A DNA stretch of 64,000 nucleotides from assembly GCF_050320075.1 (NCBI RefSeq), contig NZ_CP190018.1; one strand, 5' to 3'. The notes beneath the pieces are model-generated. The model was not told the origin of the DNA, searched no databases, and was given only the letters and a program-made list of their open reading frames with translations. The position numbers were made by a program, and so were the translations under genes. Source of the stretch: Escherichia coli (GTDB lineage Bacteria; Pseudomonadota; Gammaproteobacteria; Enterobacterales; Enterobacteriaceae). Below are positions 9,409 to 42,446 of the stretch, piece by piece (position 1 is the first letter of the stretch; every line of letters begins with the position of its first letter).

Positions 9409-9785
<377 letters not shown>

Positions 9786-19965: not shown

Positions 19966-21330
19966 ATGATTAGTGCATTCGATATTTTCAAAATTGGGAT
20001 TGGTCCCTCCAGTTCGCATACCGTGGGGCCAATGAATGCCGGAAAAAGTTTTATTGATCGGCTGGAAAGTAGCGGCTTATTAACCGCGACGAGCCATATT
20101 GTGGTCGATCTGTACGGGTCGTTGTCACTGACGGGCAAAGGCCATGCCACGGATGTCGCCATTATCATGGGACTGGCAGGAAACAGTCCGCAGGATGTTG
20201 TCATTGATGAGATCCCTGCATTTATAGAGTTAGTAACGCGCAGCGGGCGGCTGCCAGTGGCATCTGGTGCGCATATTGTTGATTTTCCTGTAGCAAAGAA
20301 CATTATCTTCCATCCCGAAATGTTGCCTCGCCATGAGAACGGAATGCGGATCACTGCCTGGAAGGGACAGGAAGCGCTATTAAGTAAAACCTATTACTCT
20401 GTCGGCGGCGGGTTTATTGTCGAAGAAGAACACTTCGGCCTGTCGCACGATGTCGAAACGTCCGTACCTTACGATTTCCACTCAGCAGGTGAACTGCTGA
20501 AAATGTGTGATTACAACGGCCTGTCTATATCTGGTCTGATGATGCACAACGAGCTGGCGCTGCGTAGCAAAGCGGAAATTGACGCCGGTTTTGCCCGTAT
20601 CTGGCAAGTGATGCATGACGGTATTGAACGCGGGATGAACACTGAAGGCGTGCTGCCTGGTCCGCTCAATGTGCCGCGTCGTGCCGTAGCGCTGCGTCGT
20701 CAGCTGGTTTCCAGCGATAACATCTCTAACGATCCGATGAATGTCATCGACTGGATCAATATGTACGCGCTGGCGGTTAGTGAAGAAAACGCAGCTGGCG
20801 GGCGCGTGGTAACGGCACCGACTAACGGTGCGTGCGGCATTATTCCGGCAGTGCTGGCTTATTACGATAAGTTCCGTCGTCCGGTAAACGAGCGGTCAAT
20901 TGCCCGCTATTTTCTGGCCGCGGGGGCTATTGGCGCGCTGTATAAAATGAACGCCTCCATCTCCGGCGCGGAAGTCGGCTGTCAGGGGGAAATTGGCGTG
21001 GCCTGTTCAATGGCGGCGGCAGGGTTAACTGAACTCCTGGGCGGCAGTCCGGCGCAGGTATGCAATGCGGCGGAAATCGCGATGGAGCATAACCTTGGGC
21101 TGACCTGCGATCCGGTTGCCGGACAGGTACAAATCCCGTGCATTGAACGTAATGCCATTAATGCCGTGAAAGCAGTAAACGCCGCGCGGATGGCGATGCG
21201 CCGCACCTCGGCACCGCGTGTTTCACTCGATAAAGTGATCGAGACGATGTATGAAACCGGCAAAGATATGAACGATAAATACCGCGAAACATCACGCGGA
21301 GGACTGGCCATTAAAGTGGTCTGCGGCTGA
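19966..21330 (+). CDS. tdcG: L-serine dehydratase (iron-sulfur)
   Basis: 454 aa from ATG 19966 ([23 protein letters not shown]...). Confidence 0.9.
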
Positions 21331-38350: not shown

Positions 38351-39595
38351 TTAATTACGTAGGGCGCTATTTGCCAGACGATCGTCTTCCGCCTGGCAAG
38401 CTGCCGCAGTGAACAGCACGTCAGTTGAAGAGTTCAGCGCGGTTTCGCAAGAGTCCTGCAATACGCCGATGATAAAGCCGACGGCAACCACCTGCATGGC
38501 GATATCGTTCGAAATACCGAACATATTACAGGCCAGTGGGATCAGCAGCAGAGAACCCCCCGCCACGCCGGATGCGCCACAGGCACACAGAGAAGCCACT
38601 ACGCTCAACAGCAGCGCTGTGGGCAGATCGACCGGAATACCCAGCGTATTAACCGCAGCCAGCGTCAACACGGTAATGGTGATTGCTGCGCCCGCCATAT
38701 TGATGGTGGCACCCAGCGGAATAGAAACGGAATAGGTATCGCGATCCAGATTCAGCTTTTCACACAGCGCCATATTCACCGGAATGTTCGCCGCAGAGCT
38801 GCGGGTGAAGAAGGCGTACACGCCGCTTTCGCGCAGGCACAGCAGCACCAGCGGGAACGGGTTACGACGAATTTTCCACCACACCAGCAATGGGTTAACC
38901 ACCAGCGCCACCAGTAACATACAGCCAACCAGCACGACCAGCAGTTGCGCGTAGCCCCACAGTGTGGAGAAACCGGTGGTTGCCAGGGTAGAAGAAACCA
39001 GACCAAAAATACCGATCGGTGCGAAGCGAATGACCAGTTTCACCATAAAGGTGACGGCATTCGACATATCGTTGACCAGGTTTTTGGTGGTCTCGTTACC
39101 GTGACGCAGTGCGAAACCGAGGCCAATTGCCCACACCAGGATCCCGATGTAGTTACCTTTCAGCAGCGCATCGATGGGGTTGGAAACCATGCTCATTACC
39201 AGCCCGCGCATCACTTCCACAATACCAGACGGCGGCGAAATATCACCCGCGCTACTGGACAAGTGCAGGGTAGAAGGGAAGGCAAAACTGAAGATTACTG
39301 CGGCCAGAGCAGCAGAGAAGGTGCCCAGCAGATAGAGGAACAAAATAGGGCGGATATTGGTTTTCTGCCCGTGCTGGTGGTTAGCAATAGATGCCATCAC
39401 CAGCATCAGCACCAGAATTGGCGCTACAGCTTTCAGTGCGCCGACGAACAAAGTGCCTAACAGACCAACAGCTTCTGCCGCGGGTTTTGAGATCCATGCC
39501 AGAAGAATCCCCAGAACAAGGCCGACCAGGATTTGTTTTACCAGGCTGCCATGAGCCAGACGCCGGAATAGCCCCGGTGAACGTTGCGTAGTCAT
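38351..39595 (-). CDS. sstT: Serine/threonine:Na+ symporter
   Basis: 414-aa [37 protein letters not shown]... Confidence 0.92.
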
Positions 39596-39887
39596 TTTTC
39601 GATCCTTTCATTGTGTTGTCGCACATCCCTGGTGCGTTCTGTCGACGCATCTTTCAGGATGTAACAAAGTGTTTGCAAGGTCGAGTATAAGGAAAGTTAC
39701 AGCTTCGGGAAGCGAAAAATGCTGGATTTTAAAGAGAGGTCATATTTTGCAACTTAATGGTTACATTTATTTGACATAAACAGAGGGAAGGACTGGCTAC
39801 TAAGGCTGATTAGATAACATATGGGCAAAACTATTTGGAATATGAGAACGGTTGCGCTCCTTTAATGTGCTATGCCATATAAAGTCA

Positions 39888-40113
39888 CTGGCGCAGGGAG
39901 CGCGCAGGGGGCGGCCAATCGCCGCCGCCCCCTGCACCCCCAGGCTCTGGCGAACAAAATCGCCGCTGCGCGGTTCCCTCAGCTTATCCCTTGCGGCTAC
40001 CGGGTCGGGCGCAAGGGAACGTCCCTGTAAGATGCGCCCTCGCCGCGCATCCATGCGCGTCGCCCCGGCCTCCAGGGAACGCTTCGGCGATTTTGACGCC
40101 ACCAACACCCGTG
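39888..40113. repeat. GC-rich, inverted-repeat-dense intergenic element of unknown identity
   Basis: About 75 percent GC block in otherwise AT-rich spacer; perfect 11-bp stem GCAGGGGGCGG/CCGCCCCCTGC (39904-39914 / 39925-39935); 10-bp stem TTCCCTTGCG/CGCAAGGGAA; inverted ~28-bp arms GGCGAACAAAATCGCCGCTGCGCGGTTCCCT (39949-39979) and AGGGAACGCTTCGGCGATTTTGACGCC (40073-40099); ends in a T-run. Confidence 0.5.
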
Positions 40114-40210
40114 CGGTCTTTTTGTAAAGAGCTATAAGCCGATTACATAATTAATAGCTCACCTTTGTCTGGAATGAGTTATCTCTAGGAATGGCTTAAT
40201 ATACAGCGAA

Positions 40211-41176
40211 TCATTCTCCCCGCTGCTTATCATGCCGATAATTCACCCAGGCGTTGATAATAAATGTCATCACCAGAATGCCAAACACCACGCCCAGCGA
40301 GACGGCGATTGGAATATGGTAGAAGTCGACAATCAGCATCTTGATACCGATAAACACCAGAATCACCGCCAGGCCATATTTGAGCATCGAGAAACGTTCT
40401 GCTACGCCCGCCAGCAGGAAATACATCGCACGCAGGCCGAGGATCGCAAACAGGTTTGAGGTCAGCACAATAAACGGATCGGTGGTCACGGCGAAGATAG
40501 CCGGGATGCTATCCACGGCGAAAATCACGTCGCTCAATTCCACCAGAATCAGCACCAGCATCAGCGGCGTGGCATACAGCAAGCCATTCTTACGCACAAA
40601 GAAATGCTCGTTGTCGATGGTGTCGGTCATGCGCAAATGACCGCGTAGCCAGCGCACCAGCGGCTTGTCGCCAATGCCTGATTCATCTTCATGGGCGAGC
40701 GCCATCTTCACGCCGGTAAACAACAGGAAGGCACCGAAGATATACAGGATCCAGTCGAACTGCGAAATCAGCCAGCTGCCAGTGAAGATCATGATGGTAC
40801 GCAGAACAATCGCCCCGAGCACGCCATACACCAGCACGCGGCGTTGTAATGCCGCCGGAACAGAGAAATAGCTGAACAACATCAGCCAGACAAAGACGTT
40901 ATCGACCGCCAGCGATTTCTCAATCAGATAACCCGTGAGAAAGGCCAGTGCCTGTGGATCGGCAACGGCGCGACCTTCGGTTTGCACCAGATACCACCAG
41001 AAAGCGGCGTTAAACAGTAACGACAGCGTCACCCAGACCAGCGACCAGGCCGCAGCCTGTTTCATGGTCATGGCATGTGCCCCACGACGCCCCTGCAACA
41101 ACAGGTCGATAGCCAGCATAATGGCGACAACAACAGCGAATCCGCCCCATAGCAACGGCGTGCCGACAGTATTCAT
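40211..41176 (-). CDS. alx: TerC-family inner-membrane protein Alx
   Basis: 321-aa polytopic [39 protein letters not shown]... Confidence 0.92.
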
Positions 41177-41400
41177 AGAAGTTCCTTACACATAAAAAAA
41201 ACGGCCAACGTCGGAAGACGTCAGCCGCTGCTTTTTATGCATAGACCTCGCCTTCCGGCAAGGTCTCACTTACAACAAAAAAGGAATACGTCTGCGTATT
41301 CCTTTCGGGTTGCCCGGTGACCGGATGTGGTTTTTCACACATCGTAATGACGATCGACCGGCAATGAAGTTACTCCCCTTTGCAGGTAACAAAGTATGAC
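41177..41400 (-). ncRNA. alx 5' leader (yybP-ykoY-type riboswitch region; also described as sRNA SraF); boundaries approximate
   Basis: Long structured untranslated region upstream of alx; assignment from established knowledge of the alx leader and its position, motif not verified base by base. Confidence 0.5.
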
Positions 41401-41459
41401 AGACCATTCAGTCAGTCAATGGTCTGTTACATGCCTTTTACACTGCTTTACTTTGGCAA

Positions 41460-42446
41460 TTATAGTTTTACGCTATCTGCCGGAAAAATCACCCCAGTCT
41501 GGCGGCGGATCTCGGTCAGCAGTTTGGCGGTGATGCGACTGACCGCCAGCCCAGGATGATCCACCAGATGTTCATCCACCAGTTCAGCAAACAGCTCTGC
41601 TTCGTAGAGCATGGTATTAATATGCTGCGGTTGGGTGAGATCCTGCATCTGGCTGCCACGCGGAACAAAGCAAACTTTCTGGCATTCAGACAGTTTTTCA
41701 ATCACCAGCGATCCTGCTTCGCCCTGAATCTCGCTTGCCAGGACAGAATCGCTCACTTTTGAGTGCTGCAACGTAACGCTGAAATCACCGTAATCCATCA
41801 CCACCACGCCGTGGGCATCCACACCGCTTGCCAGCAAACTGGCGGTTGCCTGCACGCTTTTCGGTTCACCGAATAATGCCACCGCCGACGCCAGGCAGTA
41901 AAAGCCGATATCCATAATTGAACCGTTAGAGAATGCCGGATTAAAGGTGTTGGGATTCTCACCATCCAGGTAACGTTGATACCGCGAGGAATACTGGCAA
42001 TAGTTGAAAAAGACTTTACGCAGTTTGCCGACTTTCGGCAGTGCCTGGCGTAACAGATGAAAGTTCGGCAGGCTGGCGGTTTTAAATGCCTCAAACAGCA
42101 CCACCTGATTTTCCCGCGCACAGGCAATGGCGGCATCCACTTCCGCCAGATTCGATGCCAGCGGCTTCTCGCAAATCACATGAATTTTGTGGCTAAGGAA
42201 AAGTTGTGTCTGGGAAAAGTGCAGGGCATTCGGGCTGGCAATATACACCGCGTCAATGGCATCGCTTTCTGCCATCGCTTCCAGCGAGGTAAACAGATGC
42301 TCGACAGAAAAATCATTGGCGAAGTGCTGGGCCTGCTCAAGGCTGCGGGAATAAACGGCGGTTAACTTGTATTTACCGCTCTCATGGGCGGCCTCGACGA
42401 ACTGGCGAGTGATCCAGTTCGTACCAATCACAGCGAAACGTATCAT
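41460..42446 (-). CDS. ygjR: Gfo/Idh/MocA-family NAD(P)-dependent oxidoreductase
   Basis: 328 aa from ATG 42446 (MIRFAVIGTNWITRQFVEAAHESGKY...). Confidence 0.88.
   Translation of the reverse strand: MIRFAVIGTNWITRQFVEAAHESGKYKLTAVYSRSLEQAQHFANDFSVEHLFTSLEAMAESDAIDAVYIASPNALHFSQTQLFLSHKIHVICEKPLASNLAEVDAAIACARENQVVLFEAFKTASLPNFHLLRQALPKVGKLRKVFFNYCQYSSRYQRYLDGENPNTFNPAFSNGSIMDIGFYCLASAVALFGEPKSVQATASLLASGVDAHGVVVMDYGDFSVTLQHSKVSDSVLASEIQGEAGSLVIEKLSECQKVCFVPRGSQMQDLTQPQHINTMLYEAELFAELVDEHLVDHPGLAVSRITAKLLTEIRRQTGVIFPADSVKL

Follow-up and report, generated by a model that had tools for sequence, protein, structure and literature searches.

What is the GC-rich, hairpin-rich block that lies between alx and sstT in the Escherichia coli contig NZ_CP190018.1? 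The original prediction, made from the letters of a 64,000-nucleotide stretch of this contig (the window), had noticed the block at 39888-40113 and had offered it as a repeat family other than REP (repetitive extragenic palindrome), a relic of the MITE (miniature inverted-repeat transposable element) type or a structured RNA. Our analysis identified it, with a probability of roughly 0.9, as the TRIP1d copy of the TRIP1/RRS repeat family, which occurs in Escherichia and a few related enterobacteria. The observation was real and not new: the family and the exact locus have both been described, since TRIP1d at alx-sstT is published and the G-quadruplex (G4) 20-mer of RRS is matched exactly. Identification as a known family was the outcome named beforehand as speaking against novelty, and that part of the prediction was given up.

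Identity and extent of the alx-sstT element

TRIP1 repeats were first named by Rudd (1999) and were surveyed by Li et al. (2024; Genes 15:236, PMC10888264), who distinguished five locus-specific types, gave TRIP1d a length of 264 bp and placed it downstream of alx at a distance of 96 bp, with 255 bp left before sstT. These distances therefore put the unit at 39851-40114 in the window, where homology among the copies also begins. The left end of this homology was abrupt at 39851 (GTTGCGCTCC) and the right end faded over 40116-40135. The true unit, 264-285 bp in size (39851-40114, or to 40135) and 64-70% GC, thus contained the predicted block and extended beyond it. The window reads in reverse of the K-12 orientation at this locus. 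Its 615-bp alx-sstT spacer, which contains the block, is laid out as follows:

38351-39595, minus strand: sstT, with its start at 39595
39791-40190: allele-specific segment of the spacer, defined from alignments and allele counts, made up of TRIP1d between stretches of unique sequence of about 60 bp and about 55-75 bp
39851-40114: TRIP1d unit (264 bp), separated by 96 bp from the alx stop upstream of it and by 255 bp from the sstT start downstream
39922-39941, minus strand: G4 20-mer 5'-GGGGGTGCAGGGGGCGGCGG-3', an exact match to the RRS G4 of Pham et al. (2024)
40211-41176, minus strand: alx, with its stop side at 40211

The GC content of 39888-40113 was 70.4%, lower than the 75% or so given at first, and that of 39851-40114 was 66.3%. 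The remaining spacer had 36-40% GC, in agreement with the AT-rich surroundings described, and the whole window had 50.8%. The survey of Li et al. (2024, PMC10888264) reported a homology to TRIP1a of 84-94%, a GC content of 62-65%, a 'double-Y' fold, and for TRIP1d an ensemble energy of -145 kcal/mol and a prevalence of 23%. The element of the window was similar to the published TRIP1d in locus, distances, 264-bp length, GC content, predicted stability and prevalence (about 29-30% here vs. 23%). Nothing substantial set them apart: our right end ran up to 21 bp further (40135), and the GC content was 66.3% vs. 62-65%. Over 267-287 bp, identity of the block to the K-12 copies was 88.0% at lysO and 87.8% at dusC, and at lysO of O157 it reached 90.3%; taken together, the TRIP1a, TRIP1b and TRIP1c copies, which lie at aqpZ-lysO, putP-efeU and yohP-dusC, were 86-90% identical over about 267-285 bp, in a comparison made without TRIP1e (copA-ybaP).

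The same family also goes by RRS, short for 'replication risk sequence' (Pham et al., 2023, PMC10287960; 2024, PMC11194060). The copies characterised under that name are those at lysO and dusC. They are GC-rich repeats of 222 bp, and the G-quadruplex sequence GGGGGTGCAGGGGGCGGCGG lies on their G-rich strand. TRIP1d shares with them this GC-rich core of 222 bp, an exact G4 20-mer and the folding potential of the G strand. The 20-mer had a single match in the window, where 0.01 would be expected by chance.

A megablast search with the block in 5,426 complete E. coli genomes returned 16,039 places in 5,425 of the genomes (median 3, range 1-5 per genome), which bore out the proposal of a repeat family. 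A copy at 99% identity or more was present in 1,552 genomes, or about 29-30% of the 5,426; elsewhere the best match was a paralogue at 80-95%, and the paralogues were located at yohP-dusC, aqpZ-lysO and putP-efeU. Plasmids carried 10 of the 16,039 matches, and the one that was listed (NZ_CP194962.1:204484-204530, 47 bp, 97.9%) covered the G4 hairpin part only (query 10-56). The family is like REP/BIME (bacterial interspersed mosaic elements) and BoxC in being GC-rich, palindromic, intergenic, downstream of genes and strain-variable. However, the sequence of TRIP1d is unrelated to theirs, its unit is much longer and its copy number much lower. A REP/BIME identity was tried and rejected, as no naRNA4/REP-type Rfam match was found in 39000-42000 at E up to 1, in keeping with the lack of a REP consensus match already remarked on; REP-type matches were present elsewhere in the comparison loci, outside the TRIP1 element.

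Fold of the element and its relation to the TwoAYGGAY motif

Compared with 200 dinucleotide shuffles, the minus strand folded as RNA at -148.1 kcal/mol (z -5.0) and the plus strand as DNA at -82.8 kcal/mol (z -6.8), and in neither case was any of the 200 shuffles as stable. The ensemble energy was -152.2 kcal/mol for 285 nt, with a multi-branched structure. The predicted elements of the fold are:

39904-39935: perfect GC hairpin of 12 bp (39904-39915 with 39924-39935) with an 8-nt loop, overlapping the G4 motif
39947-40105, minus strand: structured core, multi-branched, in which a long stem closes off two hairpins with hexaloops and a small hairpin at the side, likely of the TwoAYGGAY class
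39948-39978: low-coordinate arm (plus strand) of the closing stem P1, pairing with 40075-40101
40075-40101: high-coordinate arm (plus strand) of P1, pairing with 39948-39978
39987-40018: alternative 9-bp stem (39987-39995 with 40010-40018), specific to the TRIP1d copy
40007-40039, minus strand: hairpin 2, with outer stem GGGCGCA with TGCGCCC and apex ACAGGGACGU at 40019-40028
40041-40062, minus strand: hairpin 1, with stem 40041-40048 with 40055-40062 and loop AUGGAU (on the plus strand ATCCAT at 40049-40054)

Most of the stems that had been picked out from the sequence survived in corrected form. The perfect stem given as 11 bp exists and is 12 bp long, and in three copies it showed a compensatory change pair (CGGC/GCCG to AGGA/TCCT). 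The inverted arms of about 28 bp were real (about 39948-39978 with 40075-40101) and formed the covarying closing stem P1, about 25 pairs in interrupted helices with compensatory changes. The stem given as 10 bp exists too, with 9 perfect pairs (the preceding base is A, not T), and the family does not keep it: its pairing was broken in the other copies, which instead keep GGGCGCR...YGCGCCC (40007-40013 with 40033-40039). Hairpin 1 at 40041-40062 had been missed altogether. It differed from the K-12 dusC copy by four compensatory differences with the loop unchanged, the two copies being 88% identical, and its loop was kept as A-N-GGA-U across genera.

In the alignment of 38 copies, the consensus had 62 pairs, 14 of them with compensatory double changes. 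For the 159-nt core (34 distinct sequences), standard pairs filled 98.8% of cells against a shuffled mean of 94.8%, and 13 of the 50 pairs had changed on both sides against at most 4 when the 3' partners were slid by 1-3 columns. The observed value was reached in 0 of 500 shuffles; the structure tested was itself derived from the same related sequences. The G strand folded more stably in all 38 copies, and within the predicted helices there were 62 G-U cells against 4 A-C cells. Such values favour folding of the G strand, and they do not separate RNA from single-stranded DNA. This strand test is not decisive, as the helices were predicted on the G strand, G-rich RNA is favoured by composition and G-T wobbles also occur in DNA.

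The same alignments bear on the possibility that an open reading frame (ORF) across the block, 102 aa on the minus strand or 91 aa on the plus strand, encodes a protein. Long stop-free stretches were found on both strands in most copies and one RefSeq record annotates a hypothetical protein there. These stretches are unremarkable because a GC content of 64-70% predicts them. Furthermore, neither ORF matched an NCBIfam family at E up to 1, 1-nt indels between copies shift the frames, the stem substitutions are compensatory, and almost all RefSeq records among the matches listed leave the region unannotated. A coding role deserves practically no credence, and the ORFs are artefacts, as had been supposed from their composition.

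Rfam gave one match in the region: the full-length TwoAYGGAY model (RF01731) aligned to the minus strand of 39942-40107, with 33.1 bits and E 0.012 in a 3-kb search. This score lies below the gathering threshold of 43, and the other TRIP1 copies scored 26-31 bits. The motif is defined by two AYGGAY terminal loops and often a very long closing stem (Weinberg et al., 2010). It was later predicted to bind CsrA. Loop AUGGAU of hairpin 1 fits AYGGAY, loop AGGGAC of hairpin 2 has G for Y, and across the 38 copies the loops read A-N-GGA-Y. The apexes were xCA-N-GGA-U-Gx and xCA-N-GGA-Y-Gx, in most copies CCACAUGGAUGU and UUACAGGGAUGU, and their outer pair covaried between A-U and G-C across genera.

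The link was strengthened from the TwoAYGGAY side. In the Weinberg alignment, Psychromonas ingrahamii has at least 5 dispersed TwoAYGGAY copies, in which the 10-mers ACAUGGAUGU and ACAGGGACGU occur (ACAGGGACGU in one copy), at a similar GGA spacing (28 nt from GGA to GGA in TRIP1d and 31 nt in Psychromonas). We built a covariance model, R1, from TRIP1 cores only; its E-values are rough. It scored 175.6 bits on the window core 39947-40105 and matched TwoAYGGAY-type elements over the full length of the model at 46-62 bits (E 1e-9 to 1e-15, rough). Two of them, at comparison loci L028:2181-2334 and L096:5633-5786 (54 and 53 bits, E about 1e-10, rough), contain RF01731 matches of 49.2 bits, above the threshold; in Pseudocitrobacter such a match lies about 65 nt from the TRIP1 copy, on the other strand. 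What TRIP1 and TwoAYGGAY have in common is a long stem that closes the structure and, next to each other, two hairpins with A-Y/R-GGA-Y hexaloops; TRIP1d and the Psychromonas copies share ACAUGGAUGU and ACAGGGACGU, and the P. ingrahamii element is also multicopy and dispersed. By contrast, TRIP1d is below threshold, is much more GC-rich, has G for Y in the hairpin 2 loop, and belongs to a family with an additional G4 hairpin module and side hairpin. On balance, the TRIP1 core is likely a diverged member of the TwoAYGGAY class, so that the orphan Rfam motif and RRS would be one kind of element. Rfam, CsrA and TwoAYGGAY all go unmentioned in Pham et al. (2024) and in Li et al. (2024).

In Kluyvera, Enterobacter sp. 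ENT03, Pseudocitrobacter and a gut enterobacterium, a second, inverted core of the TwoAYGGAY class adjoined most of the TRIP1 copies searched, about 60-110 bp away on the opposite strand (including L028:2181-2334, L096:5633-5786, L092:4067-4219 and L085:910-1063). The R1 search found none beside the Escherichia copies. The Escherichia unit accordingly looks like one half of a larger composite element of related genera, because the second core accompanies most copies there and no copy in Escherichia. Within the 64-kb window there was no second TRIP1 copy by blastn or by R1, which gave only an insignificant 11-bit match at 20995-21170. The only Rfam family that reached its gathering score in the whole window was rnpB, the RNase P RNA, at 9409-9785 on the plus strand (318.6 bits). 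The alx leader, which is described as a member of the yybP-ykoY (manganese) riboswitch class, showed no Rfam match to that family in 41177-41459, even at E up to 10.

As for the suggestion of a structured RNA, an element structured either as RNA or as single-stranded DNA is supported by covariation and by the TwoAYGGAY link. The element might be mainly an RNA: the G strand would be read through from alx, its two CsrA-type hairpins (ACA-N-GGA-UGU, about 28 nt apart) would be bound by a CsrA dimer or another RNA-binding protein, and the fate of the alx or sstT mRNA would be modulated, or CsrA titrated. In keeping with this are the G-strand TwoAYGGAY matches (33.1 bits in TRIP1d), the reciprocal R1 link to two elements above threshold, the A-N-GGA-Y loops kept while their closing pairs covary, the lack of a terminator-like site between the alx stop and the element, and the strand counts given above. 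The apexes are also close to the CsrA SELEX (systematic evolution of ligands by exponential enrichment) consensus RUACARGGAUGU, whose invariant parts are ACA and, in a hairpin loop, GGA, and TwoAYGGAY is itself predicted to bind CsrA. However, hairpin 1 of TRIP1d reads GCA rather than the invariant ACA, the Rfam score is under the gathering threshold, G-rich strands fold better by composition, with G-T wobbles stabilising single-stranded DNA as well, and a literature search for CsrA with TRIP1 or dusC found no linking paper. Furthermore, downstream of aqpZ in K-12 and downstream of putP it is the C strand that reads as sense, and a simple cis-acting RNA role is argued against because the orientation relative to neighbouring genes is not constant. 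CsrB, CsrC and RsmZ likewise present GGA in hairpin loops matching the SELEX consensus, whereas TRIP1d has only two such sites and its own promoter or terminator was not identified. A mainly RNA role is unlikely. A related proposal, that the two A-N-GGA-Y hexaloops are protein-recognition sites, for CsrA on G-strand transcripts such as alx read-through RNA or for a hairpin-binding protein on unwound DNA, is likewise unlikely.

Spacer alleles, orientation and mobility

The comparison of spacers between strains confirmed a polymorphism at alx-sstT, with the TRIP1d allele in about 30% of E. coli and other alleles of the K-12 type. In K-12 MG1655 the spacer has 398 bp and unrelated sequence replaces the block. 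With the K-12 spacer as query, this type of allele was found in 3,667 genomes at 80% coverage or more, some of them variants without a 75-bp repeat unit. For many genomes among the matches listed, only the sstT-proximal 185 bp of the K-12 spacer matched, and we take these to carry the TRIP1d allele. The segment 39791-40190 stands in place of a K-12-type multicopy repeat and a hairpin-T6 terminator after alx. That other repeat (L003:3547-3944; median 6 places per genome, CCCTCTCCC...GGGAGAGGG...GGGTGAGGG) is presumably BoxC-like. Two unrelated repeat families thus occupy the same spacer in different strains.

Could the element serve as a transcription terminator or insulator between alx and sstT? 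It replaces a segment with a canonical terminator, its structure is extremely stable, and it lies upstream of the conserved sstT-proximal 185 bp. However, one consensus scan detected 0 terminator-like sites in 39500-40300 on both strands. The T-run at 40116-40125, at which the block had been said to end, is present on the plus strand, but it lies outside any terminator-like site. It is the sole T-run, runs antisense to both alx and sstT, and was not conserved among the copies. Other copies also stand in both orientations relative to their upstream genes. We consider this role very unlikely. An AT-rich inverted repeat, GAGCTAT ... ATAGCTC at 40129-40160, abuts the fading right end on the alx side. 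It is the sole hairpin between the alx stop and TRIP1d; its minus-strand reading is followed by UUUAC, and it failed the terminator criteria.

Orientation was also variable between lineages. The lysO copies of K-12 and O157 were opposite in orientation (L008:2516-2782 vs. L004:2472-2736), as were the dusC copies of K-12 and strain M70 (L002:3123-3407 vs. L006:2466-2732). E. whittamii carried TRIP1 in the alx-sstT spacer in the orientation opposite to that of the window (39851-40135 vs. L057:5175-5460), and the cryptic-clade Escherichia MOD1-EC7003 had the same alx-sstT allele at 95.5% identity. The immediate flanks were unrelated between oppositely oriented copies at the same intergenic site. 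In-place inversion, independent insertion and allele replacement are candidate mechanisms. The forward and reverse TRIP1 counts of Li et al. (2024, PMC10888264) agree with such variants.

Beyond E. coli, a one-genome-per-species scan for the G4 20-mer gave 92 stretches. Homologues of full length, 78-95% identical, came only from Escherichia species, Kluyvera, Pseudocitrobacter, Enterobacter sp. ENT03, which had 7 full-length copies, and a gut enterobacterium; K. cryocrescens had 6 matches to the 20-mer and K. intermedia 7, several at contig ends. The other 20-mer matches were chance in GC-rich genomes or contaminant contigs, and the representative genomes of Salmonella, Klebsiella and Citrobacter had no exact match. 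Since the scan was for exact copies of the 20-mer, this range is a lower bound, and for the same reason the conservation of G4 among the collected homologues is by construction. A near-identical TRIP1d (95.5%) in Bacillus sp. EB106-08-02-XG196, on a 583-bp contig (L075) with coverage 0.7, looks like a contaminant from E. coli and not a genuine occurrence.

These data bear on the idea of a selfish or relic mobile repeat of the MITE type with no host function at alx-sstT, whose structure would reflect the needs of a mobilising enzyme or the mutational dynamics of palindromes. Consistent with it are the presence/absence polymorphism, the 1-5 copies per E. coli genome, the 6 or 7 matches to the 20-mer in some Enterobacter and Kluyvera genomes, the patchy distribution among genera, the occupation of the same intergenic sites in opposite orientations, and the location of all copies just downstream of genes. 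So are the abrupt common left end GTTGCGCTCC and the matching inverted right end of the AGCGCAAC type in some copies. On the other hand, a 70-nt junction query found no precise empty site in the 5,426 genomes, and therefore transposition is neither shown nor excluded; no target-site duplication was seen either. The terminal inverted repeat is short; it pairs GTTGCGCT... with ...AGCGCAAC in certain copies, and the version in TRIP1d is degenerate. Allele replacement by recombination explains the polymorphism equally well, because the whole spacer segment of about 400 bp differs between alleles. Finally, K-12 copies have a demonstrated phenotype (PMC11194060). A purely selfish or relic element is therefore somewhat unlikely, though it deserves to be kept in mind.

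A simple insertion of the element into a K-12-like spacer was rejected, the entire segment 39791-40190 being allele-specific. At putP-efeU, the K-12 copy TRIP1b (L009:2856-3005) is an internal-deletion derivative that lost about 125 bp; the deletion joins two imperfect direct repeats internal to the element, CCCC.GG.CT..GG.GAAC, with window equivalents at about 39938-39955 and 40064-40081. Strain 2011C_4247 has a full-length copy at that site (L005).

The G4 strand and replication

What TRIP1d may do has to be read from the RRS copies of K-12. Their G-rich strand blocks Pol I, II and IV and gives rise to gaps on the lagging strand, as long as 2 kb, on which RecA and SSB are loaded; the lysO and dusC copies could not be jointly deleted without compensation, and their deletion or inversion altered genome supercoiling (Pham et al., PMC10287960, PMC11194060). 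The pair flanks Ter, about 650 kb on either side of dif, with the G4 strand as lagging-strand template (Pham et al.). Inverted RRS gave no RecA or SSB peak in vivo, yet could replace the native copies (PMC11194060). In vitro, the native orientation produced a gap of about 700 nt at essentially every passage, and G4 on the leading strand gave lagging-strand gaps of about 330 nt at a frequency of about 66% (Kusi-Appauh et al., 2026, bioRxiv 10.64898/2026.06.16.732529).

The position and orientation of TRIP1d differ from these. It lies at about 3.24 Mb on the K-12 map, about 715 kb from oriC, on the opposite side of the replichore map, and not beside Ter. It was found with a 100% match on the plus strand of NZ_CP042899.1 at 672,805, and this record begins with dnaA-dnaN-recF-gyrB on the plus strand. 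The fork therefore runs in the plus direction of the window, and the minus-strand G4 is on the leading-strand template, the 'inverted' orientation, rather than on the lagging-strand template as in RRS. The same logic reproduced the published lagging-template orientation at lysO and dusC of K-12, and the GC skew of the window agreed weakly with the leading-template assignment. The lysO and dusC copies of the source genome itself lie outside the window.

By analogy with the K-12 lysO and dusC copies, unwinding of the duplex would let the G-rich strand fold into a G-quadruplex and hairpins that block DNA polymerases. This block would leave single-stranded gaps with SSB and RecA on the lagging strand and would influence chromosome supercoiling. 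Given its leading-template orientation, TRIP1d would be at most a weaker, C-strand-mediated gap trigger, because inverted RRS gave weaker or no gap signal in the published assays. Recombination with other TRIP1 copies may also use it as a substrate. The minus strand, which is the sense strand of alx and sstT, carries the G4. It is probably transcribed by read-through from alx, because the G strand is sense downstream of alx and our one consensus scan detected no terminator-like site before it.

Several points weigh against carrying the RRS mechanism over to this copy. It was demonstrated experimentally for the K-12 copies only, and TRIP1d is dispensable, being absent from K-12 and missing from about 70% of E. 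coli. Its place, some 715 kb from the origin, is away from the flanks of Ter, where RRS are considered to function. Between strains or species, the natural copies at lysO, dusC and alx-sstT face either way, which sits uneasily with a strict requirement for G4 on the lagging-strand template. Furthermore, a model that relies purely on G4 or on a polymerase block does not explain why the A-N-GGA-Y loops are conserved.

For the RRS field, the GGA hexaloops are a conserved feature that the G4 model does not account for, and if they were true protein sites, part of the action or the spread of RRS would be independent of the G-quadruplex. Through the likely link to TwoAYGGAY, an orphan motif with more than 200 representatives would gain its first experimentally studied relatives. 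As a copy of this family, TRIP1d is an 'inverted' RRS that occurs naturally in about 30% of E. coli, among them sequenced reference strains such as E24377A (NC_009801.1, 99.6% match), and at a distance from the flanks of Ter it offers nature's own ready test of the model of RRS gaps and topology.

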